Origin: Catajapyx aquilonaris
Taxonomy: Eukaryota
Direction: 5' to 3'
Length of the DNA: 35,665 bases
Assembly (NCBI GenBank): GCA_000934665.2
Contig: KZ539042.1
Coordinates: 1-35,665, forward strand
Positions 11,601-29,680 of this stretch are shown one piece after another. The first letter of the stretch is position 1. Each line of letters opens with the position of its first letter. The notes under the pieces were generated by a model that did not search any database, was not told the origin of the DNA, and saw nothing but the letters and a program-made list of their open reading frames with translations. A program made the position numbers and the translations under genes.

Positions 11601-11738
11601 AGAGTCGCTTATAGAACAAATTAGGTGTTGGCAACAGGGTCCCTTTTGATGTTTTGCTTCATTTCAAGGTGTCTACAACGTGTAGTATTTGTTTTCAGTG
11701 GACGGCAAACTGTGAATCGAAATGACCATATGTTGATT

Positions 11739-11809
11739 GCTCTCATAGCTCAGCTGGAAGAGCAACAGCTTAATGCTGGAGGTCCCGGGTTCGATTCCCG
11801 GTGAGGGCA
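11739..11809 (+). pseudogene. tRNA-like element (tRNA pseudogene or SINE head) with shortened anticodon arm
   Basis: Acceptor stem GCTCTCA/TGAGGGC, D arm GCTC/GAGC, T arm CCGGG-TTCGATT-CCCGG, intact A and B boxes. The anticodon arm is 15 nt (ACAGCTTAATGCTGG) instead of 17, so no isotype can be assigned. Confidence 0.75.
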
Positions 11810-12003
11810 TTCATTCATTGGGTGTTAGACTAATAGCTGGCAGATTGCACCATATTTTGGCAATTTGTTCACTGCAGGCCAAATATTAATGTACTAGCGT
11901 TGTTGATCTATGGCACTTGTATTAGTTCCGCCATTTATTTAGCCTTATTTACAGTGTGGTTCTGATGGACTTGCATATCGGTGGATATCCGGTGTATTAC
12001 GTA

Positions 12004-13550: not shown

Positions 13551-16500
13551 ATGGCCGTTTGCCACCCACCAGTCCCCTCTGCTGCTATCGGTACCATTAT
13601 GCACATGTGCAAGACAATGACAACCGTCTTTTTCAGTACTGTGGTACTCCTCGTCGTAGTGGCTGAAGGTATGTATCGTACTGCTCAGATGGAACATGTG
13701 TGCACCAGTGCATGTACCGTTATTTCATCTTCCATTTCAGTCACTTGCTTGGAATCGAAGATACACAAACCCAAGCGAGAGGTGTGGGCAAGGGAGCCTG
13801 AAATTGAAAGCAAGATCTTGTTCATGGAGTGGCTAATAGATGGTTGCAACCCACCCATGCCACCTTGCACAGATGCGCCAATATGCCTGCCCTACCCTAT
13901 TCGGGGAAAGAAATATCGGAGATTTGATGGAAGTGACAACACCGACGGGTTTCCCATCAGAGGCATGGCTGGTAAGATATGATGATTACACTTCAGCGAA
14001 TCTTCTGGTTTAATATTATGTTTGGGCGAATGTTCTATTTCAAAGGATAATTCCCTTGTGAGTGCTCTACTTCTGACTCTGACGAGTGTGAAAAAATGAA
14101 ATATCAGGGCAACTACGTGTGTAGAAAACTTTGTGTAAGTGTTACTTTAGTTGTGCGAACAAAGGTGAGAGAGATCATAATAATAATCTACCTAAGAATA
14201 CTATACGAGGTGTTTACGTTAGGTTAAGCTGAATTAACTCAAATAACCTCACCTGACCTTTATTTAAGTTACGTTATAATATGATGTTACCCAAAGATTG
14301 ACTGATTGATTAGGAAGGAGCCAAACCAACTATCAAATGGCTCTCTGGCGTTTGGGCATGCCATGTGAACACTGACAAGTGAGTGCACGGAGCTTCCTCT
14401 ACACACAATTAAATGATACCTTGATTATGTTATTGTAGCATAATTATGTTAAGTATTCTTTACACAGTTTACAGCAAATAAAGTAATTATTTCATCATAA
14501 CAGTATTGAAATGAACAACGGGAGATAGAGTACGCGCCCACTGATTTCACAGCATGGAATGTTGCAGTAATAACGCAGATTCCAGGTAACCCTGAGCATA
14601 ATTTTTGTGTTAATAATATGCACTCTGTAAGTCCTTGGCATTGTGACAACCTGTAAGGTGAGAGGTTACATGAGAAATTCTTTCCACCAAACTATGCTGG
14701 TTCAGGAGAAGCTTTACAACCACCCAGACCCCTGGCGAAAAGGTTTCTGGAGATTTTCTGGATCCCTTGTCTGAATATCATTTGCATTTGCATGGAAAGG
14801 AGTGCTAGTAGGAAGTTCACACAATACCTTCAGCCTAACCACAAAGTCAGTTGGTACTGCCACTGGCACTAGTGTGGCCAGGGAAGGTCAGCGAATGTCC
14901 CTTAGGTCATGTCAGCAGGCCTTCAGACCCACCAGAGAATCCAAGTCCGTTTTGTCGTGTTGACACATGCAGGCGGTCACCTCTCACTCTGTCTCCGTAA
15001 AGATGACCTAAGTTATTTGGCCAATGATATATCTAAACTTAGAACATAGAAATCTTTGGTGTTACCTGAAAGCTTTCCACTTTGGATGAATAAACTGATA
15101 TAATATCATGCCTTTGATTTGCTTCACTTTACTTCACATCACGACTTTTTACTAAAGAGGTGCATTATTCTCATAATTACGCATGAACTTTACCATTTTT
15201 GCTACACTCGTCAGCTGTCTGGGATGCACTAATTATAAAGTATTCAACGCAATTTTATTTGTCCAGGAATGGATTTGAACCATCGGATGACTTATAGTTT
15301 TGGTGACCGAGTGCAGAAGATGGGGTTGAAGGATGCTCCGAACCCATTACTTTTGAGCTATGAGCTGTTCAGGAACAAAGGGAATACCATAGAGAAGAAG
15401 AGTAACATCCTGGGAAACTCAGGAAGGTCGCAACTAGTTCACTTTTTCGGTACAGTACAATGTTTAGTTTCAGTTGATATTGGGAAGTCAAGGGGAGATG
15501 GGGCAAGGGAACTCTAGCAAGGTGAACGTCAAGGGAAATAAACACGTCATCTCTCTAGAGTGGTGCTTGTTGTTTAGCACCAGAAAGATATTTTTTTGTT
15601 TGTTTTTGTGTTTAAAAAAAAAAAAATACCCCGTGATAGGGTGGAGCCCTCTGAGGGGAGAAGGGGAGGTTCCCAAGGGAGGGTGCTGTAATTTTAGTCA
15701 TTTCTGACTTTGTGAAATACACCAGACCTTTTCTCCTGGCCCTGGGCAGAGTAGGGAGTGCAATTCGACCAGAAAGATAGGTTTGATTTAAAATTTTTAG
15801 ACAGGAAGTGCGTAAAGGATGCTCAGCAATTCCCACATAATAGGCGCAGAGGGCAGTTTTCTGAGATATTCTAAGCTCAACCAATTCCGAACATGTTCTT
15901 GGATGTATGGTATAATTCAGGGGTGTGGAGTAAATATTTTGACTCCATTCCCACATGACCACCCTTGACTATGATGTCCCTTAACCAGCAGGATACTCCC
16001 TGTGGTTCCCACCAGAAGCCACAACTTGATGCCTCCTAGCTGAAAGGGATGCATTGTACAGTTTGTAGAGTAAATGTGTATCAAAAAAGTTTAGGCCAAA
16101 TGTATCCTTGCACTGTATAATTATGCTCATCTGATCTTTCTAAAGTGAAAACATTTTTCCCCTTCACTTGTCACCTTGCTAATGCTGGTGGTTTGATTTG
16201 CAGCAGAAAGCTAATTTCCCGAAAATATTTTAGTGATACACTATATGACCATAAATCAAAAGCCAGAGTAGATTTGACAGCCTGTATGTGTATGTATACT
16301 GTACCGGCAGGTAAATACGTAGTAGAGGAGGTGGTCAACACCCGAGCCATGTCGTGCCCTGTGGAGTTTTCCCACATAGATATACCGAAGGAAGAAGCTG
16401 TGGATGAGTGGAGTGACTGGGGGATAGAGAAGATGCCATTTGTCCGCGGCCAGTATGACCCCGACTCTGGCACAAGCCCCCAGAACCAACGTGTACCGAT

Positions 16501-19500
16501 AAACAGAGTGACACCTTGGATCGATGCTAGCTCAGTGTATGGCTCCTCTAGGATGTGGGCCACCACCCTCCGACGTCAGCATACAGGACTGATAGAGCCA
16601 GACGGACTGCTGGCTTCCGATGAGTCGGGCCTTTTCCCTGAATACAATTGGATGAATCTGGGATTTAATAATCATCCCACGTGCTTAAATCATTCATATT
16701 ATGATTTGTACAAGAGAGGATTCCCTTCGGGAAGACTGAAGGGATTCGGATATGCAAATGGCAATGAGAACCCGGCCATGTTTTCCATATCCACAATCTG
16801 GTTCAGGTGGCACAACGCTCTGGCCCGCTATATCAAGTCTAGGCACGAAAACCTTAACGGGGATATTCTCTTCCAAGAGGCCAGACGCTGGGTCATTGCC
16901 ACCATGCAGAGGGTCATTGCCTATGAATGGTACCCCACCATCTTCCTCAACCCATTGCCCAAATACACTGGGTACGACGTTTCCAGCGACCCACAGCTGG
17001 AGGTGGGAGTGGTTACCGCTGCCCTCAGATTTGGACACACCTACATTCCTAAAGGTTAGCCACGTAATACTCTTGTATCCTTATCCCTGTCCTTTGTCAC
17101 CTCTCATCATTCGGGTCTGCAGGTCTGCAGGTCTGCAGACTCCCATCAGAGTTCTTACACAGATTATTAACACCACCTATGCAGTGATTGTCGGGGAAGA
17201 TCGACGCATAACCGTCGATGACCTTGCCATAATGATTGGTACCTCCAGTGGTAGTGCCCACGCGATTTTTGAGTGACAATTTGCATTTGCGATGCGTTTG
17301 CATCCGATACGATGGGTCCCCCAGCCCCAAGCAGTTGACACGACAGGAGAGGCAGATGCGGGTGGAGGTTTGCAAAGAGTAATTGCAACGTCTTGTGGCC
17401 TCACGTGGTGACCAGTATCTGCTGGTCACAATCTTAGCATAACATGCACCTCCGTCGCTGTTTTCTTCAAACGGAAGCAGTACCTCAACGCTGAATTTTG
17501 GTCCTCACTATACCGACCTCCTTGCAGAGGGGAGGCTACCTCCGGTGTCACTGTCGCCTGGGATTGTGGAATATTCGTACAAAAATTGGTGATCTAATAC
17601 TTCAATCCATTTTGGACACGATGCCATTCACCGCGAGTCATGAACTAATTCTCTTTGTCACATAAACAATCAGTATCAATTAATTTTGACTGGCCCTCGT
17701 ACTTTCAACTTATTTTTTGCCTCTCCTGTAAAATTTATAAAATGGTATATTCGCCCCTTCTCCTTACTGCCGACGATATCGGACAGTAGCAACTACCTAC
17801 TACTTTTCTATTTCTAGCTATATACTACTGTTGTTATTATAATACTCGTAATATACATGACCACAATGTTACGTACGTAATAATTCGTGTGCATGTGTCT
17901 GTCGGCAGTGATCAACTTGAGGCTGCCTGCTAATCTGTCCTGCAAAGGTCACTCTTACTCAGTGGAGGGTAATGTGTTCACCAGAGGCGGAATTCGATTG
18001 TGCCAGTCATACTGGACAGGACAAGATGCTTTGTTTCAGTATCTGGAGAAGCCATCCGGAACGTTTGACACTCTTGGACCGGGTCATGTCCTGATGGGCC
18101 TGGCCAGCCAAGAGGCCAGGTCGGAAGGAAACGTGATGGTAGAAGATGTTCGAGGTGGACCTTGCAATTTTACACATACTCTATCACATGGCCATTTTTT
18201 TCTGACGGCATCCTGTTTTCCTTCCCAACTGTTAGAATACTTGTATGGACCGATGTCATTCAGTCGACGTGACCTGGCTGCCATTGACATTCAGAGAAAC
18301 AGAGATTTTGGAGTGCCAGATTATCATACCTGGAGAAAGCACTTTAACTTGCCCCCGCTGAAGAATCTTTTAGAGATTTCTGATAGTATTACTGGCCAAA
18401 TTGTCACCAGGAAGGTAGGTAGAAGAGGCATGGGCAGGAACAAGGAACACTCTCATTCTATGCACACGTTGTTGCCCCAGGGCAATGCACTTGATTTTTA
18501 ACTTAATAGAGTACCAATAGCGACATGAATGACTTGTACCTTGTCCAGGAGAAGAACAAACATACTGTTCTCTTGCCATTGCAGCTCTTAGAAAAGGCTG
18601 AAGAACTTTACAAGGGAGGCCTGGTCGATTTGTATGTGGGAGGAACACTGGAGAGCCGAGGGGAAGTTCCAGGCCCCTTGTTTGATGCCATGATAAACAA
18701 AGATTTTGCAGCTATAAGAGATGGGGACTTCTACTGGTACGAGAACAAATTCTCAGGGTACGTACACCTGTCATAGACATAAAAGAAGGAAGTGTTTGTG
18801 ATTCACATTAGCAGAAATAGCAACTCAATTGTTGGCAGTGGACCACACTTTGAGAATCACTGACTTAATGGCCCTTATATTGACTGTGCAGGAAAGTCTG
18901 CCATGGAACAACTATTCCATGGTAAATGGTAATGTACTATCAGGTTCAAATACTTTTGGCCACTTTATCCTGGTCTTGAAGCAACCCTTCGCACAGACCT
19001 CACGTTAAGGAGGTGTGCGTGTGTGTGAAGGGTTGCTTCAAGACCAGGATAAAGTGGCCAAAAGTATTTGAACCCGATAGTACACTATGTAAAATGCTAA
19101 TATATTGCAGGAACAAGTTGCCTTATGAGTTACCTTACCTATGCTGTTCAGGCTCGATCCATATAAACCGATAACACCGAGCAAAATGATCTGAAAGACT
19201 GGTTGCAAAATTACAGAAGGTTCTGTAACGTGGAACAGGGAACAGGGCGCTTCAGAAATGTCTCACCAAGTCCGGATGGCAAAACCAGACATCTAACAAT
19301 ATTGAAAGTTTTTATTTGTCGTACTCACAAATGTTCCTTTTCTGTCACACACCTGATTTTTCTGGCCAGGTATATAATATATAAATGGACACACACCGAC
19401 TGAAGCCAGGTAGCAATGGCTTCCACCAGTCGAGAACACTAACTTCTCCCTCGTCGAGAAGGCAAAAAGCAAGCTTGGAGGAAAATTTATTATGTTCATA

Positions 19501-21535
19501 GTATGTTCATAGGGAAAACCTCTTCCTAAAAATTAGAGGCAGATAAATCGTCAAATTCCGAACGTTGGGATGTAGGCTACACCGTACATAGTACATGAGC
19601 CAAAATAGTAGGGCAAAGTTGCAGGTTTACTGGAGTACATGGGGCTACACCACTGGTACGACACCGGTGTACAGTAGCCTACTGCATAGTCACCCCTGAG
19701 ACCAACATATTATTTACTTCATTGGCCTTAGTTACATTGCCTCCTGTAATAAACCAAATCTGCAACCAGTCGTCTGGATCTTTTTTCGCGGTATACGGTG
19801 CCATATTCTCACCACTGGAATACATTCATAGGCACTTCTCGACTGAAGAGATTGAACGCATCAACCAGGTGCGATTTAGCGACATCATCTTGTACGTCAC
19901 ATCGTTGACTCATGACGACATCCAGGAAAACGTATTTGCTTTGGAAAGCATTGGTAAAAGTGTGATGAAGATGAATGATGACTGGAATTTTTCACTCTAT
20001 TACTATTTCAGAGAATCTGAATTACAAGTGCAAGAAAGTGTTTGGCGAGACAAGGAAGCGTTGCCACAGGCCAGAATGGCCCGAGGATGGCAAATTATGC
20101 TACCACATGCCAGAGTATGACGGACCAGATGAGGTGGAGCCTTGTAATCCCCTGCGACAACATGACTACACCTACGGCATCGTCTTGGGTATATCTTTGA
20201 GTGCCATAGTCCTCTTTGTAATCCTGATGGTCATGGTGGGCATGCTCAAGTGGAAGGTGGCCACCTCTATCCTGCAACAGTACAAATTCACTCTGCTGCT
20301 GCTGAGCAAGATGGGCAAGATGGACGCCTCCTCTAGACATGTGCGCTCTTTCGAAGCGTTGGAGTTCATGGGAGTGAAGAATGGCTCCAGACGTGTTGTA
20401 GTACTTCTCAACATGAAGAAACGCGCCATAGAGTTGTGGGGCTCTCTGGGAGAACAGCTGAGGGTGCTGCCACTCAGCATGTTCAAAAATATCGACATGA
20501 TCCTGGGAACAGATGGGCAGCACCTCGTCATCAAGGTATGGCAAAGAATGGACACATTGATAGGTCTTGTGATGAGAGAGTGGGCATCTGAGGAGATAAA
20601 CAAATTGCAGTAACGAGTGGGGTCGTTTTAGTACTTCTATTATTGTACGTTGGTGGTGAAGGGTATAAGTGTTAACCAAGCCTCATGTGGTGTCGTTGCA
20701 GGTGCCGTATGAATACGATGTTGTGCTTCAGTTCATCCTGACGGAACATCGCGATCAGGCGCTGAATGTGATGAATCTCTTTCTGAAAGATACCAGAGTT
20801 TCAGCTCTGTTTCAGTCATGGACGCTCTATAAGACACTGAAGCACACTGTCACCTACGACGACCGCCAGATCATTCTCAATAACTTCTTTACCTATATGA
20901 GTATCCAAGCACAGACTATTTATAAGACTGGTGCAATATGGAATCCTGGAGAGCTCAAAAGGAGGTACGCCCAGATCGAACACGTGAAACTGAACAAGAC
21001 GGAGTTTGCAGAGGCACTTGGGATCACCTCCAATTCCAATTTCTTTAAGAAGGTGGGTGCATGGTGGTGATTTATAGAGGAATGCACGGGATGGGGCACT
21101 GTCCATGTCCACAGCAGTCAAGCACAGGGTTTCGTTTCTCATTCGGAGTACATTTTGTGTCTGCCAGGGGACATCTCACATTTAGCTGGTGCTGTTCACT
21201 GTTCACTGTAGTTTTTTCTTGAAATAAATAACGTCCCCTGAATCTGAGACACGATATGCCGTATATCCGACCTGGAAGAGCGACACGGTGGCGGAGTGGT
21301 TAGCGCCACAGCCTTCCACCTCTAAGGTCCCGAGTTCGATCCCTGGGTCGGACGGAGGACACTTATGTGGATAGAGTTTCGATGGGTTCTCTCCGTGTTT
21401 GCATGGGTTTTCTCGGGGTTCTCACGTTTCCTCCAACAATCAAAATCCATCACAGCAAAGGCAATGATTAGAGACGGTTCGCGAAAAGATAATCCCCTAA
21501 GAGGCCCAAAGAGACCTATCACGGGGTATCCATTA

Positions 21536-21590
<55 letters not shown>

Positions 21591-24500
21591 GGCAACAATG
21601 AATCTGACAATTAATAACAAAGGAAAACTTGTACCTGAAACTGAATCTTGTGTTCTGCTGGACTTGGAATGGCACCACCTTGATGTACATTGAAGAATAA
21701 CTACGACACTTCTTCTGCACTCATTTCAGTTGTTCCCGCTGATAGCAGGCACAAAGTCTTCATACATTGGTGCACGCGAATTCCGAGACTTTTTCCTCGC
21801 CTTCAGTCGAGGTAACTGTCAATCTGAGGCTGCAGCTAAAGGAGTATTTTCAACCCAGCAAATGCACGAGTTTAACAAAATAACTTAATGAAACACTTTC
21901 TTTGTGCAGGGCCGGTTAAAAGCAAAATCTACATATTGTTTGACATGCACGACATAGAAGGAAGAGGACGGCTCAACTTTGACCAGTTTCAGGACTTGCT
22001 CATGTGAGTGAACTTCATCGTTATCGGCAGTGGCTATTAGTCAATTGAACATGAGTAAAACTTGATTGATTACTCACTCTAGACACTCAGGGCACTAGTT
22101 GATTTATATGGACCCATTGGTGATGGGAATGTGCATGAGCAAATGATCCATCTCGTTTGATAACCCTTTCAATAAATTACTGTAGCACAATGTAGTTACA
22201 AAGGAACCACCCTGTGCATTACAGGAACTTGGCAGAGATTTCCATGAATCGTCTCACAGAGGAGGATCTCAATTCTGCCGTGGACGAGCTGATGAAGGAG
22301 GCCGAAAAATACGACGTGGTAAGTGCATCATCGGACCAGATGCAAAGACTCATCAACTTCCATGCTCTTTCAGACCAGTTGACTATGTTTTTGTTTTGCT
22401 CTGGAGGGTTTGATTTGTCATGAGGGGTTTTCACTATGCTTTCACTGTTAACAGGATGAGTTTCGAGCCAGAGATCTGAAGGAGCTCCTTCAGGTACACG
22501 GAGACATCATTGGGTTAGCTAACCTGGACCTCCATGGACCCAATGTTCCCGAGAGGGATTTATATAAGGAGAAGGCCCTCGAACAAAACATGAGTAACTT
22601 CGATGCTGCCATGATGGCAGCGTCTGACCTCCATGACACGGTTTTGTATGTGTGCACTTATCCTAATAACGTATTATTATATCTCTCACAACTTAATCAG
22701 TTTATGGTAACAGAGACTCCAAAGGGTAAAATAATATCATATTCACTCAGTTAAAGCAAACTCCCTGTTTACAGGTCTAGGAGAAATGATCCAGTTGACA
22801 CAGAATACCCTTCCATCGTTGTCAAGACGGATGTTAGGAGACTGAGTCGCATAGGTCGGATGATCTTTGACATCAAATTGAAGTGGCATCAGTACATGTT
22901 CATCCTGATAGTACTGGTTAGCAGCGCCTGCACCACAGCTTACTATCTGATTGGTTAGTACACAGGGTGGTTCACTGAACGATTGTCCAGTTTGAGAGGC
23001 GGGACAGGGAGGGAAACAGGGAAAAGAATGTGACTTGTTTATCCTCTCAGTCATTTGATAGGAATGTAAGCCTTTGGTGATCATTTAATTGTGGTAATTG
23101 TTGCTTCTCTTGTCAACTGGTTGTTGGTATGTAAGCATACACAATCGTCTTTAGTCAGTCCCCTCTTGGATTGAGACAGTCCACTGCCTTGAAATTATTG
23201 TTCTCGTCGTGATTCAGTCTTGTAACCACAATGGAATGTACTTTTCTTGCCTCTCAGAGAGTGACAGCACACCGGAGAGGACTTTTCTCCACGAATATTT
23301 GGGTGTGACAGCCATGCTGCCCAGGGCAACTGGCTCTGCCATTCTATTACTATATTCCATTTTGCCAATTACTACTGCTCGGATCTTGAATACATATTTG
23401 CGTAATACTGAGCTACGGCACATCTTCCCGTTCGATGCCATGATTGATGTACACAAGGCCATTGCCTGGATTGCCGCTGCTTATGCAGGTAAGTCTCAGT
23501 TTAAGTATTCATGAGACTGTAACTCCTTAGGGCAAATTTGGGTTGTTTGTAATAGTGTAAGAAGTAGTTGGTTTAGTGTGTGTTGCTTGTGCTCTCAATT
23601 GACTCAATTTGATATTTTTGTGTTATTCAGCGGTTCACTCAATACTCAGCATTGTGTACTTCGCTACGTTGACATCCAAGGAGCCTGCCTACCTCGAGTG
23701 CCTTGTGAACTACTTGGATGAAGAGTAAGCCATTGCCATTATGGGTGTCTAACAATATGCGCGTCCAGAAATTTGTTAGCTAGATTGTTTTGAGTATGAT
23801 GCTGAAAGAGAACCACTGTATTAGAGTACAATCATAGTGTAATATTAGTCTCTCGCCTAATCCATTAATTTTTTGTCTTCGCTTAGGAAAGGCGAAAGAG
23901 GCAACTTCAACGACTGGCTCTTGAGAACCTGGACAGGAACAACGGGATGTGTCTTGGTCATTCTTCTGATGATAATTCACCTCTATTCCATGCCCAGCTT
24001 CCGTCGCCAAGCGTTCCGGTGGTTTTGGGTGTCCCACATGGCCCACGCCCTGTTTTATCCATTCCTCCTGGTCCATTCCACTGCCCACTTCATGAGGGTA
24101 TGCCACCCTTTTGTGTGACCCGTGACCTTGTTGGAGATACACTCCCTTATTCCCCACCTGTCTCCATTTCAGATCCCTACCCTTGCAAATCCCGTGATGG
24201 TTTCATTGCTGGTCTACGTTATAGACCACTTATTAAGAATGCGCAGACATGTGATCGCTCTGGATGTGGCGAGTTTTTTCCTGCTGCCTTCCAGTAATTA
24301 ATTATTACTGTATTTATTGTTATTGTTATACACAGAGTGGTGCCTGCCTAAAGGTACAGCACATTCTCACGAATTCAATGGACCAATGTGGGACAAAAAA
24401 GAATGCCGAGTCGTTTTTTGCCATAATCATCCGAAATTGGAAAACAAATCGCAATATAATTATGTAGTTTTTCGCGAAAGGAAAGAGAGTCAGCCGTGCA

Positions 24501-26298
24501 GAAGGGTTGATAAGGGAATTTGTGAGAATGAGATTTGAGTTGAAACACTCGACAATGCGGCAGGGAAAAATGTGATGGATTACTCCCTCCAATTGCACAT
24601 CCACGTTCTCGTTGAAATATATCGATATGAACATGGGACTGCAGAGTGCAAGTACAAATTCTGGAGTAAGTGATTCAGCATGTCCTTCCCATTGTTGAAG
24701 GTGTCAACTTAGGGAACCACAGTAATTAACCATTGTTCAAACAGGTCTAATTAGTATAGGTCAGCGTCACAAAGACTGACTGTTCCACCCTCTCTCCGTG
24801 AACAGATACTTTCAAGTTATATGTGAAGAAACCGTTGTACTTTACCTTCAAGCCTGGCCAGTGGATCAGGTTGTCCTGCGCAGCTTTAAATCCAGACGAG
24901 TTCCACCCTCTCACCATAGCCTCCATGCCAAATTATGATTATTTGGAGTTTTACGTGCAGGTGGTTGGGCCTTGGACACACAATTTAAGGAGAGTCTACA
25001 ATTCACGAAAACTGCAAAAGAAGTTGTATCCCAAGGTGCGTTATGCTGTCAACTATAGTCTAGCCCTCATGGGAACTGGGGTTTGGGTAATTCATTTACC
25101 ATCATGTAGGCACCATAGCCAAGCAAACAAATTGTATAAATGGTCGTGAAATGCATGGTGTTGCAAGAGATGCCTATTTCATAACGGACTTGGGTTTCTT
25201 GCGAATTTCTATAACGCAAAATGACTCCAGATATGACCGCTTTATGACAGAGATAATCGCAAGCTAGAGGAGTTTTTTCATATACAGTAGATATCTGCAA
25301 TGAACCAAAGTCTCGAAGTACGGCACCTTTCCGTATGTTATTATACACACTACTTTCAGAACATTTTCTTTTCCAGGTTTACATTGAAGGGCCATTTGGA
25401 CCCGACAGGCATTGGCGTGACTATGACGTTGCAATCATGATAGCAAATGACGATAAAGTCATTTCATTCATCTCGGCTATAAAGGAGGCCGTTCACTATG
25501 GAAACGGAACACTGCCCATACAATGCCGCAAGGTAAGTTATGTTCAAGTTTTCTTCCGATGCTGTAATCTCATGGAATATTGTTGTTTTCAGATGTACTT
25601 CCTGTGGTCGACCACTAACCAAAATCAGTTGGAGTGGGTTGTAGCAACTCTGGCACAATTGGATGAGCGTGACCCACGCCGGTTCCTCTCGCCTCACATT
25701 TGTATCACAGAGTCAGCGGACAGGTACGACTTTAGGACTTTAATGCTGTATCTATGCGAGGAGCATTTCTTCAAGGTGCGAGGGAGGTCCCTCTTCACTG
25801 GTCTGAGGACAATAACACATTTTGGAAAGCCGTCGATTAAGTCGTTTTTGACGTCCATAAGAAAAATTCAAAGGGTGAGTAGCTGATTTCCTATGCAACT
25901 ATGGGGTCTGTTTCCATAGCACCGAAGAAACTGGACTTAGGTCTTAACCATGTGACTATTTGGATGCTAGACACAGTGTTGCCAACCTAGATATACACAT
26001 TCTGACGTCTGATGATTGCATGTCACCACGTAATCGACTGTTGGTAATAAGCCTATGTGTCCAGAATGGGTCAGCTTCTTTAGTGCTGTGGTAATGAACC
26101 CTTACTTTTAGATTGTGATTGTACAGTACTATATGTATTTATTACACCCTGTTCCTTGTTGGGTTGTGGCAGGTGCAGTCCTACTGCGTTTTCCATGCAG
26201 GAGACCACCAGACCAAGAGGGAAATCATCGACATCATTTGCAGTCTTAATGAAGTGACCAGAGGAATAAGCCAATTTGAATTCGTGTCTGTCAAGTGA
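13551..26298 (+). CDS. Duox: Dual oxidase-like protein, about 1653 aa, 23 exons: 13551-13668, 13741-13971, 15267-15449, 16311-17054, 17909-18154, 18236-18414, 18585-18757, 19832-19953, 20012-20535, 20702-21052, 21730-21811, 21910-22003, 22225-22318, 22455-22645, 22775-22953, 23258-23488, 23631-23724, 23887-24097, 24173-24293, 24806-25035, 25377-25532, 25593-25874, 26173-26298
   Basis: Signal peptide, heme-peroxidase homology domain (NRVTPWIDASSVYGSS, WFRWHNALA, RFGH, RRDLAAIDIQRNRDFGVPDY, IRDGDFYWYEN), TM helix, VPYEYDVVL/EFAEALG cytosolic segment, EF-hand-like pair, ferric-reductase TM region with His pairs 14 and 13 residues apart, FAD motif (FKPGQWIRL...EFHPLTIAS), EGPFG, YDFRTLMLYLCEEHF...LFTGLRTITHFGKP. 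All introns are GT-AG; exons sum to 4962 nt with no internal stop. The start could be a later ATG in exon 1. Confidence 0.95.
17150..17425 (+). pseudogene. Decayed mariner transposase fragment in Duox intron 4
   Basis: EDRRITVDDLAIMIGTSSGSAHAI / LSDNLHLRCVCIR / WVP / KQLTRQERQMRVEVCKE*LQR across frameshifts: the second HTH plus the WVPxxL linker of mariner transposases. Confidence 0.8.
18937..19080. mobile_element. Small TA-flanked foldback MITE in Duox intron 7
   Basis: TA|CTATCAGGTTCAAATACTTTTGGCCAC...GTGGCCAAAAGTATTTGAACCCGATAG|TA; about 60-bp arms. Confidence 0.9.
21278..21590 (+). mobile_element. tRNA-derived SINE with V-domain-like core and (ATT)n tail in Duox intron 10
   Basis: A box TGGCGGAGTGG, B box GAGTTCGATCC, central gttctctccgtgtttgcatgggttttctcggggttctcacgtttcctccaaca resembling the V-SINE conserved domain (from memory), then a 3' tail ending in (ATT)n. 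Confidence 0.85.
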
Positions 26299-27469: not shown

Positions 27470-28530
27470 TCACTTCTTGCTCTTTACTTCGTCTGGTGAT
27501 TTAATCCCAATAATCCGCCTGAAGGATGTCAAATGTGGTGACAGAGATGGTTTATTCTCGGATGGACTGAAATGTATTATTGAGGTACAGAATGATAGCC
27601 TACATACAAGTCACTTGACATTGTGTATTAGCTACTCGTATTTGAGTAAACTAGCAGCAATTTTATGTATTTTTTACATACGTAAGAGAAAGATAGTTGG
27701 CTGGTTCCATTTCAATCCAGACGGTGGGTGCCCAGTCATGGTCTTCGATTTTTTTTTAAAAAANTTGCGGAGCCTCTCCTCCTCGTCCTCCATCAGCTTC
27801 TTCTGTTCATGTCGTTTCCTCATCTCTTCTTCCATCCTCTTCTGCCCTTCCCGAACTTTCTTATACTCTTCATCTTGTTTCCTTTGGTCCTCGATCTGGC
27901 GGTTCTTGTGCATTTCTTCCAGGTGCTGGTTAATGTGCTCCAGGTCAGACATGTGCTCTTGGAAGTGATGCAGCTGGTCTTGCAGTTCTGCTACTGTTTG
28001 GTCCTTCTCATCCAGCTCCATGCGCAGGTAGTTCATTTGCTGCTCCTGCAAGCTCTGCTCTACAGAGCACTTTTTCAGTTGTTCCTCTAGGACGGCCACC
28101 TCCTGGTCACGCTCTCTCTTCCATTCGACCTCAGCCGTCAGCTGATCACGCTCTCTGTAAGGGTATGTAACATCATTGTTGGTCAGGATAATATAAGTAC
28201 AGGTACATATTGTTAATTATACCTGTGCAGTTGCTCCTGAGCCATGGTAAGCTCTGCTATCTGCGTGTGAAGCCTCTGATACTTGGTTGTTGTTTCCTCT
28301 GACTTTCTCTCAAGTGTAAGGTTGGCCTTGGATAGCATATCCATGTGATCATGGACCGACACTAGCCTGTCGAACATCATCTCAGACTTTTTCCACAGCA
28401 TGGTGTTTTGCCTCTTAAGCTCCTTCACACGCTTCAAGAGGCTCAATGTTCCTGTCTCCGCATATTGTTTCTCATCAATCTCAGTCTCATCCTCACTCGA
28501 GGTATCAGCTGATGTACTTGGTTGGTCCAT
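27470..28530 (-). CDS. Uncharacterised coiled-coil protein; exons 28530-28223, 28154-27682, 27566-27470; likely additional 5' exons 28718-28663 and 29647-29472
   Basis: E/Q/K-rich heptad ORFs 28213-28530 and 27674-28099 joined by a phase-2 GT-AG intron; minus-strand AATAAA at 27293-27298. As written the frame stops at 27674; the last exon joins sensibly only after a 1-nt shift at the A-run next to N27764. Confidence 0.75.
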
Positions 28531-28756
28531 TTGTTCTACTTTTTAGGAGGCTTTGCTAATTTAAAAAAAATGAGAGTTTATTAGACATGTAGCACAAAGT
28601 TCTTTTCCATATAAAGTCACTTTCCATCTTCACTTGCAGTGAAGCCAGAATAAGACACTTACCTCCTGCCTTCTGACTGGTTTCGGCTAAGTCGTAGCTA
28701 AGTTGGCGGCTATACTCTCTGTAAAATAAACTGGAATACGATTATGATTGTTGGTA

Positions 28757-28947
28757 CTAACTTATCTGTTCCAATAACTTTTGGCCACTTCGTCCTGACT
28801 ATTTCGTTCATTCTGGGCCCGAATCAACCCGTTTCCCAGACACAGACGGGCTTCGCCATGGGGAGCATGTGAAATGGGTTGCTTCAAGCCCAGGATGAAC
28901 GAAAGAGTAAGGACGATAATGTGGCCAAAAGTTATTGCAACAAATAG
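28757..28947. mobile_element. Foldback MITE related to the 18937-19080 element
   Basis: Inverted arms tgttccaataacttttggccac / gtggccaaaagttattgcaaca; shares TTTTGGCCAC and GGGTTGCTTCAAG.CCAGGAT with the 18937 copy. Confidence 0.8.
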
Positions 28948-29680
28948 TACATTGGCAACCCTGTCGATATCAAGAAATGTGTAAAGAAATCACATGGAAA
29001 TTTTTGAAATTACGAACTTTGTGTTTCAGATGTTTGACACAATTTTACTTTTCTTTAGTAGGCACATCACTAAAAGGCATTTTCCATCTGTCGAGAGAAA
29101 TTCATTCTATAGCTCGGTAACGTATCATAGACTACTCTAAATTCCTAGTATTATAGTGACAATATTATACAATGTGAGCCTCTTATGATATAAATCACAT
29201 AATTGGCTAGTAAATTGTGAATTATATTATAGTCTCCATTGTCTTGAAAATAATTATAAAATACCAAGCTCTTCATGCATATTTTGTCAATGCACATCAC
29301 CAGATGATGGGTAATAACTTTGTACAGTAGTAGCCTTCATGTCCATTTTTTGTGATTTACAGATTTCATAATCATGAGTCATTTTAACGTTAACCATCAA
29401 TGATTGCTGACCCATATAATATTTCTAATGCATGAGCAAATACCATACCATATATTTTTAAATAGGCCTACCTCATTAGATATTAATGGTTGTTTATATC
29501 AGCATTGTCAAAACACTTGATGCGAACTGTTGATTTTAGGTCATACTGTCATGCCTTCCAATCCTCACCAGTTTGTCCTCGGGTTATTTTATGACAACTT
29601 GCTGGCTTATTCGTCCCAAAAGACCTCACTAAAATTTTGACACCTTTCTGAAAAAAAGTAATTCTGACCACTGTTTTGTT

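Follow-up and report, generated by a model that had tools for sequence, protein, structure and literature searches.

Degenerate EF-hands are already known in nematode Duox, so altered loops alone are not new. In C. elegans BLI-3 (Ce-Duox1), the EF ligands for Ca2+ are poorly conserved and the GxGxxP motif is intact (PMC2196470), and its H2O2 production in cells requires no stimulation by Ca2+ (PMC3447965; review PMC6210377). Its paralog Ce-Duox2, a recent truncated duplicate (94% identical), was predicted to have no working NADPH domain (PMC2196470). In human DUOX1, the Ca2+ ligands are D828, D830, N832 and E839 in EF1 and D864, D866, N868 and E875 in EF2, and six Phe residues on the EF side clamp helix alpha-4 of the dehydrogenase domain (PMC7794343). 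The helix-loop-helix after EF2 is non-canonical in normal Duox as well (PMC1940245). The naming of arthropod Duox as type 1 and type 2 follows PMC9421330, which also describes the calpain-like EF-hand (NOX5 EF1 type): a loop of 11 residues with Ala or Val at X, an acidic Z and Glu at -Z.

The window, i.e. the whole stretch of 35,665 nt that was analysed, is the entire contig C2148 of Catajapyx aquilonaris and carries a divergent Duox gene. Like BLI-3, this gene has the full Duox architecture and degenerate EF ligands; unlike BLI-3, it does not keep GxGxxP. It resembles Ce-Duox2 as a paralog predicted to have no working NADPH domain, but it is full length, is subject to purifying selection and has ~31% identity to the canonical gene from which it derives. 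Human and mouse DUOX1 (PDB 7d3e/7d3f, 6wxr) share with it the domain order, the helices of the EF module, the haem His residues and the hydrophobic contacts that join the EF module to the dehydrogenase domain. The differences from DUOX1 are in the NADPH residues, which are lost, and in the loops: D828, D830, N832 and G833 of EF1 are replaced by Ala, Thr, Ser and Ser, and D866, N868 and E875 of EF2 by Glu, Arg and Gln.

A kept multi-member Duox clade without Ca2+ and NADPH motifs was not found in the literature, the coverage of which was incomplete. The addition made here is the paralog series: one genome has two canonical Duox alongside nine paralogs that were kept, with NADPH, EF2 and EF1 losses in a traceable order.

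Gene model and domain order

The divergent Duox gene was predicted at 13551..26298 on the + strand, as were all exons given below. The model comprises 23 exons and 1635 aa with no internal stops, and every intron is GT-AG. The start codon and the first exons are its less certain part. Pfam searches with single exons matched An_peroxidase, FAD_binding_8 and NAD_binding_6, and the order of the Duox family is present: peroxidase-homology domain, transmembrane helix, PH-like domain, EF module, six-transmembrane haem domain, FAD and NADPH domains.

The largest peroxidase-homology exon (16311..17054) keeps the proximal His, and the distal Gln and Arg are changed to Lys and Asn. Exon 20702..21052 encodes the last part of the PH-like domain together with the helices preceding EF1; in it, the equivalents of F768, F807 and F819 are retained and that of F772 is Ser. 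The EF1 exon (21730..21811, 82 nt) and the EF2 exon (21910..22003, 94 nt) are both bounded by AG/GT and in phase. The next helix-loop-helix (22225..22645) is split in the exon model into 22225-22318 and 22455-22645.

All four haem-ligand His are present in the transmembrane exons (23258..24097), and the FAD-binding exon (24806..25035) largely retains its motif. The NADPH glycine motif is replaced in exon 25377..25532, which reads ANDDKVISF where GxGxxPF is expected. The following dehydrogenase exon (25593..25874) encodes the alpha-4 face, which docks on the EF module. Its six alpha-4 hydrophobic positions are still hydrophobic, and the equivalents of R1424 and R1495 are Thr and Lys. The last exon (26173..26298) has neither the conserved Cys of Cys-Gly nor the C-terminal ENF.

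EF-hand loops

The EF1 loop (21745-21780, + strand) translates to AGTKSSYIGARE, with Ala1, Thr3, Ser5, Ser6, Ile8 and Glu12. It has 12 residues, of which one is acidic, and a net charge of +1. The EF2 loop (21951-21986, + strand) translates to DIEGRGRLNFDQ, with Asp1, Glu3, Arg5, Gly6, Leu8 and Gln12. Both loops were placed on EF1 and EF2 of human DUOX1 by alignment through a named arthropod Duox.

For comparison, 72 of 80 library Duox rows could be scored; eight were dropped because their loops were missing or of odd length. Fishes and lancelets are represented redundantly among these rows. Library EF1 loops had Asp1 in 72/72, Asp or Asn at position 3 in 68/72 and Gly6 in 70/72. Position 12 of EF2 was Glu or Asp in 69/72; Gln12 and Arg5 were each found in one of the 72. 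Ser at position 5 of EF1, which occurred in 13/72, is an allowed ligand. The initial annotation had stated that EF1 lacks acidic ligands at positions 1, 3 and 5 as well as Gly6. A loss stands for positions 1 and 3 and for Gly6, whereas Ser5 may serve as a ligand and Ile8 and Glu12 are retained. EF2 retains Asp1, Gly6 and Leu8. Arg5 and Gln12 in EF2, which it had also reported, were confirmed by the translation. Judged against the 72 library Duox, the changes in the window loops are not chance variation.

Neither loop passed the strict or the lenient ligand rule, nor did either match a PROSITE-like pattern. This pattern is too strict, as it fails 37 of the 72 library EF2 loops, and the ligand rules were applied alongside. 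The EF-hand scan proposed in the initial annotation placed the EF2 exon below the Pfam cut-off (EF-hand_6: 20 bits, cut-off 25). EF2 is still a recognisable EF-hand, and its exon gave 199 weak PDB matches (E up to 1). The EF1 exon had no match in Pfam or PDB. As ligands are lost from both loops, the annotated loss of canonical Ca2+ sensing is likely.

Search for artefacts and alternative exons

A spare exon giving canonical loops was sought in the window and in the four flanking introns. HMMs were built from canonical EF exons and run on 1809 six-frame segments of the window. They found the EF1 and EF2 exons alone (E 0.018 and 1.7e-7), with next best values of 0.26 and 0.8. The PROSITE-like EF pattern matched none of the six-frame segments, and the number of candidate EF exons was zero in each of the four flanking introns (4/4). 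An alternative canonical EF exon was therefore rejected.

The EF region contains no N. The paralog C3471, which lies on another contig, has 9 of 12 EF1 loop residues in common with the window gene. Since a near-identical derived EF1 is present on a second contig and no N occurs in the region, an assembly error is excluded.

Selection and probable structural role of the EF module

The window gene was compared with C3471 over its whole length (pN 1013.5/3668, pS 662.5/1108) and for the two EF exons. For the EF1 exon, pN was 8.5/59.9 and pS 10.5/21.1 (P=0.003): purifying selection acts on this altered exon. It was also more conserved than the remaining protein (P=0.013, uncorrected), a level of conservation reached by 19% of same-length segments. 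For the EF2 exon, the values were 28.3/73.8 (pN) and 8.7/19.2 (pS), with P=0.39 and no local pS excess, and its pN was below the gene-wide pS. Hence, 'structural and constrained' holds for EF1, not for EF2.

The contacts known from DUOX1 are mostly retained in the window gene. Of the six EF-side Phe, five persist, and the six partner positions in the dehydrogenase domain are all still hydrophobic. Given the selection on the EF1 exon and the mostly retained contact residues, the EF module is now probably structural. The view that the EF fold persists was thus borne out at the level of sequence, with helices and hydrophobic contacts retained under purifying selection.

NADPH, haem, FAD and peroxidase sites

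GxGxxPF was present in 71/72 library Duox and is absent from the window gene, in which Asp-Asp-Lys occupies the pyrophosphate-binding place of the glycine loop. The gene thus fails the features of an active NADPH oxidase (GxGxxPF, Cys-Gly and the arginines for the NADPH phosphate). All scorable divergent paralogs (8/8) have a changed GxGxxPF and are without the Cys of Cys-Gly, R1424 and R1495. The decay of the motif is graded: two C5764 paralogs keep the spacing in part, and the window gene keeps none of it.

The haem ligands are intact, as the equivalents of H1130, H1144, H1225 and H1238 are all His. D1128, R1113 and R1214 are also kept. The equivalent of H1148, which we take to have a role at the oxygen site, is Ser. 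The FAD site mostly keeps its motif along with D1128 and R1214, and the R1131 equivalent is Lys. On these residues, the case for a dead oxidase is one that rests on the NADPH site, not on the EF-hands.

The peroxidase-homology domain showed a uniform pattern in the scorable paralogs, with the proximal His present in 8/8 and the distal Arg lost in 8/8.

Duox complement of the genome

The genome contains two canonical Duox genes, one type-2-like (C28) and one type-1-like (C19), and nine divergent ones including the window gene. A Nox5-like gene was found on C428. Both canonical genes have canonical EF loops and intact GxGxxP motifs. Paralog models were made with our own spliced aligner. Two of the nine divergent genes (C9486 and C4589a) are partial; an N-terminal fragment that would be the tenth (C4589b) was left out of the count.

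The nine divergent genes formed one clade with a FastTree support of 1.0. IQ-TREE, run without support values, gave the same topology for the nine-member clade. The window gene has 14 of 22 intron positions in common with C28 and 5 with C19, which argues that the clade derives from the type-2 gene of this genome. This descent is based on introns and best hits, as long branches keep the trees alone from deciding it. The best named relatives were arthropod 'dual oxidase 2-like' proteins with ~40% identity in the peroxidase exon, the best library matches being those of Cephus, Cylas and Procambarus. A full HMMER search gave a best identity of 40–45%. The arthropod type-2 Duox differ from the window gene in that they have canonical or near-canonical loops and keep GxGxxPF; the identity between the window gene and C28 is 31%.

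Word-based and full HMMER searches returned canonical-type or distant Duox and peroxidases only. An ortholog of the divergent clade in other species was found by neither search, and these are weak negatives. The joint loss of EF and NADPH motifs was examined in the paralogs only, as library orthologs of the clade were not found.

Matches to DuoxA (PF10204) were found on 11 contigs (C1280, C28, C19, C2314, C1527, C3659, C4071, C541, C1582, C4822 and C726), with open frames read at two of the 11. The number of matches suggests that DuoxA was co-expanded with the divergent Duox clade. One DuoxA lies head-to-head with the canonical C28 gene.

In the exons from EF2 to FAD of C3423, C4589 and C9486, pS was 0–0.05, compared with 0.11–0.21 gene-wide. 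These near-identical synonymous sites hint at gene conversion.

Inferred order of losses

EF2 is broken in all nine divergent paralogs, but not in the same way. Five have Gln12, one has lost the Y/Z ligands and three have Glu1 and an insertion. An early loss of EF2 as a single event is not proven by these sequences, as the subclades are broken differently. The four ligands and Gly6 of EF1 are kept in four of the nine (C3423, C4589a, C9486 and C5764a), although all four of these loops fail the PROSITE-like pattern. EF1 is broken in the other five. Parsimony on the FastTree tree would place about three separate losses of EF1: on the branch of the window gene and C3471, on the branch of C5623 and C2062, and in C5764b.

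As the NADPH site is altered in 8/8 and the EF1 ligands are kept in 4/9, the loss of EF1 appears to follow the change of the NADPH site. The decay of EF1 would then be a late stage in a wider decay of the whole clade. It follows that EF and NADPH losses are not independent witnesses, and the loss of EF1 is better read as a consequence of the NADPH-site change. The initial annotation had taken the EF loss as independent support for the loss of regulated oxidase activity. This could not be upheld, given the order of losses within the clade and given BLI-3, which is active without Ca2+ despite its degenerate EF-hands. EF-hand loss should not count as separate evidence for a pseudo-oxidase.

The library gave cases on both sides. 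Four of the dropped rows had no recognisable EF loops, yet they kept GxGxxPF and Cys-Gly; the two of these four that were scanned had no Pfam EF match. Two of the 72 scored Duox (P0026 and P0045) failed both loops, and both also lack the Cys of Cys-Gly. This fits co-decay. As candidates for a dead EF module with a live NADPH site, both were downgraded for the missing Cys, and P0045 further because its EF1 passes a Pfam cut-off.

The Tachypleus tridentatus protein P0054 ('dual oxidase 2-like') also has wrecked NADPH and FAD motifs. It differs from the window gene in that it lies outside the clade, its EF2 keeps all four ligands, its EF1 is only mildly altered and one haem His is lost. P0054 is a candidate for a second arthropod pseudo-Duox with an independent loss.

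Possible compensated frameshift in EF1

The DNA of the EF1 loop at 21745-21762 matched the canonical loop of sister paralogs better at a one-base offset than in frame. In the sister subclade, the canonical loops translate to A-A-T-K-T, A-A-T-K-M and A-S-T-K-M when the reading frame is moved on by one base. The in-frame EF1 residues are A-G-T-K-S in the window gene and A-G-T-K-A in C3471. Against C3423, the shifted match of the window gene was 10/13, compared with 4/13 in frame. This was the most extreme of 1356 positions in the gene, and the corresponding rank for C3471 was 1 of 1342. The shifted match was weaker against C4589a, where 23 of 976 positions were as extreme, and against C9486 (5 of 492); with C5764a there was none. 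Under a null of point mutations, six pairs gave P values of 0.0005–0.068, or 0.005–0.20 with Lys4 fixed; the test was post hoc and the six pairs are not independent. MAFFT aligned the EF1 exons without gaps. Compensated frameshifts are rare, with 0.002–0.003 expected per gene according to PMC8935012. A loss of EF1 in a single compensated frameshift is thus possible, though we lean against it.

Explanation and rival readings

With moderate confidence, we read the EF module as Ca2+-blind and retained for a structural role in a Duox paralog that is probably non-catalytic. NADPH-driven activity would have been lost near the stem of the clade, and this would have relaxed selection on the Ca2+ ligands. 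EF2 would have gone early and EF1 about three times separately. Packing of the EF helices against the PH-like and dehydrogenase domains would explain why they persist, as folding or trafficking, probably in company with a DuoxA partner, would depend on them. Regulated H2O2 would be supplied by the two canonical Ca2+-gated Duox elsewhere in the genome. Against the non-catalytic part of this reading, the gene retains the four haem His and most of its FAD site, as an electron-transfer protein would require.

The four haem His, together with D1128, R1113, R1214 and the clamp interface, would be expected of an active, Ca2+-independent electron-transfer enzyme of the BLI-3 kind, with the EF module fixed in an 'on' clamp. 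Its haem-FAD chain would be constitutive or controlled by a partner, and the donor would be NADH or another molecule, not NADPH. BLI-3 provides a precedent (PMC2196470, PMC3447965, PMC6210377), the arginines lost from the window gene confer the preference for NADPH over NADH (PMC7794343), and the four EF-less library rows keep GxGxxPF and Cys-Gly. However, BLI-3 itself keeps GxGxxP (PMC2196470), and the window gene has lost the entire glycine loop, the conserved Cys and the C-terminal ENF. It also has Asp-Asp-Lys at the pyrophosphate place and Ser for H1148, and we consider an active enzyme unlikely. Still more doubtful is weak, non-canonical binding of Ca2+ or Mg2+ that keeps some regulation. 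EF1 would then bind through backbone carbonyls and Glu12, like Ala-starting calpain-like EF-hands, and EF2 through Asp1 and Glu3. Ala1 and Glu12 of EF1 are indeed shared by the window gene with C3471, and the loop is conserved at 9/12. In addition, NOX5 EF1 is described as functional though non-canonical, its X position being Ala or Val (PMC9421330), and non-consensus loops can bind Ca2+ (PMC1940245). Yet the calpain-like loop has 11 residues and an acidic Z (PMC9421330), and the window EF1, with 12 residues, a single acidic one, no acidic Z and a charge of +1, does not match this type. EF2 has no bidentate ligand, the change of which causes disease in human DUOX2 (PMC7794343).

Neutral pseudogene decay, an error in the gene model or the assembly, or an overlooked canonical exon is the least probable of the alternatives and largely refuted. 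The assembly is fragmented, which speaks for such an artefact. The 23-exon model without stops, strong purifying selection against C3471, the same derived EF1 in that paralog and the lack of a further canonical EF exon in the 1809 segments and four introns all speak against it. On the same grounds (stop-free model, purifying selection and shared EF1), a pseudogene was rejected.

A more speculative extension of the structural reading, which we regard as improbable as a whole, is a new function for nine full-length Duox-derived proteins and the co-expanded DuoxA, uncoupled from both Ca2+ and NADPH. They might serve as a haem-FAD wire with another donor or tune the canonical Duox in mixed complexes, for example. 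The EF module of the window gene would then be a permanent clamp, with EF1 switched off by one compensated -1/+1 frameshift and afterwards preserved by selection. The paralog series is a natural panel for asking which role remains to a Duox once oxidase activity is gone and whether its EF module does a structural job that is independent of Ca2+.

Other features of the window

The intron preceding EF1 contains a high-copy interspersed repeat (21280-21530) with 2466 candidates. The 40 copies scored among these were 90–93% identical, the repeat itself excepted. It is followed by an (ATT)n tract and, to our eye, resembles a tRNA-derived SINE. A MITE-like inverted repeat of 69 nt (94% complementary, 20-nt spacer) lies within an intron at 18930-19087, and similar sequence was found near 28860-28950. 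The translation of the intronic stretch 17150-17650 resembles what we take to be the helix-turn-helix of a mariner-type transposase. The Duox gene is flanked upstream by a tRNA-Leu(taa) at 11738-11810 (+ strand) and downstream by a coiled-coil-like gene at 27674-28700 (- strand).
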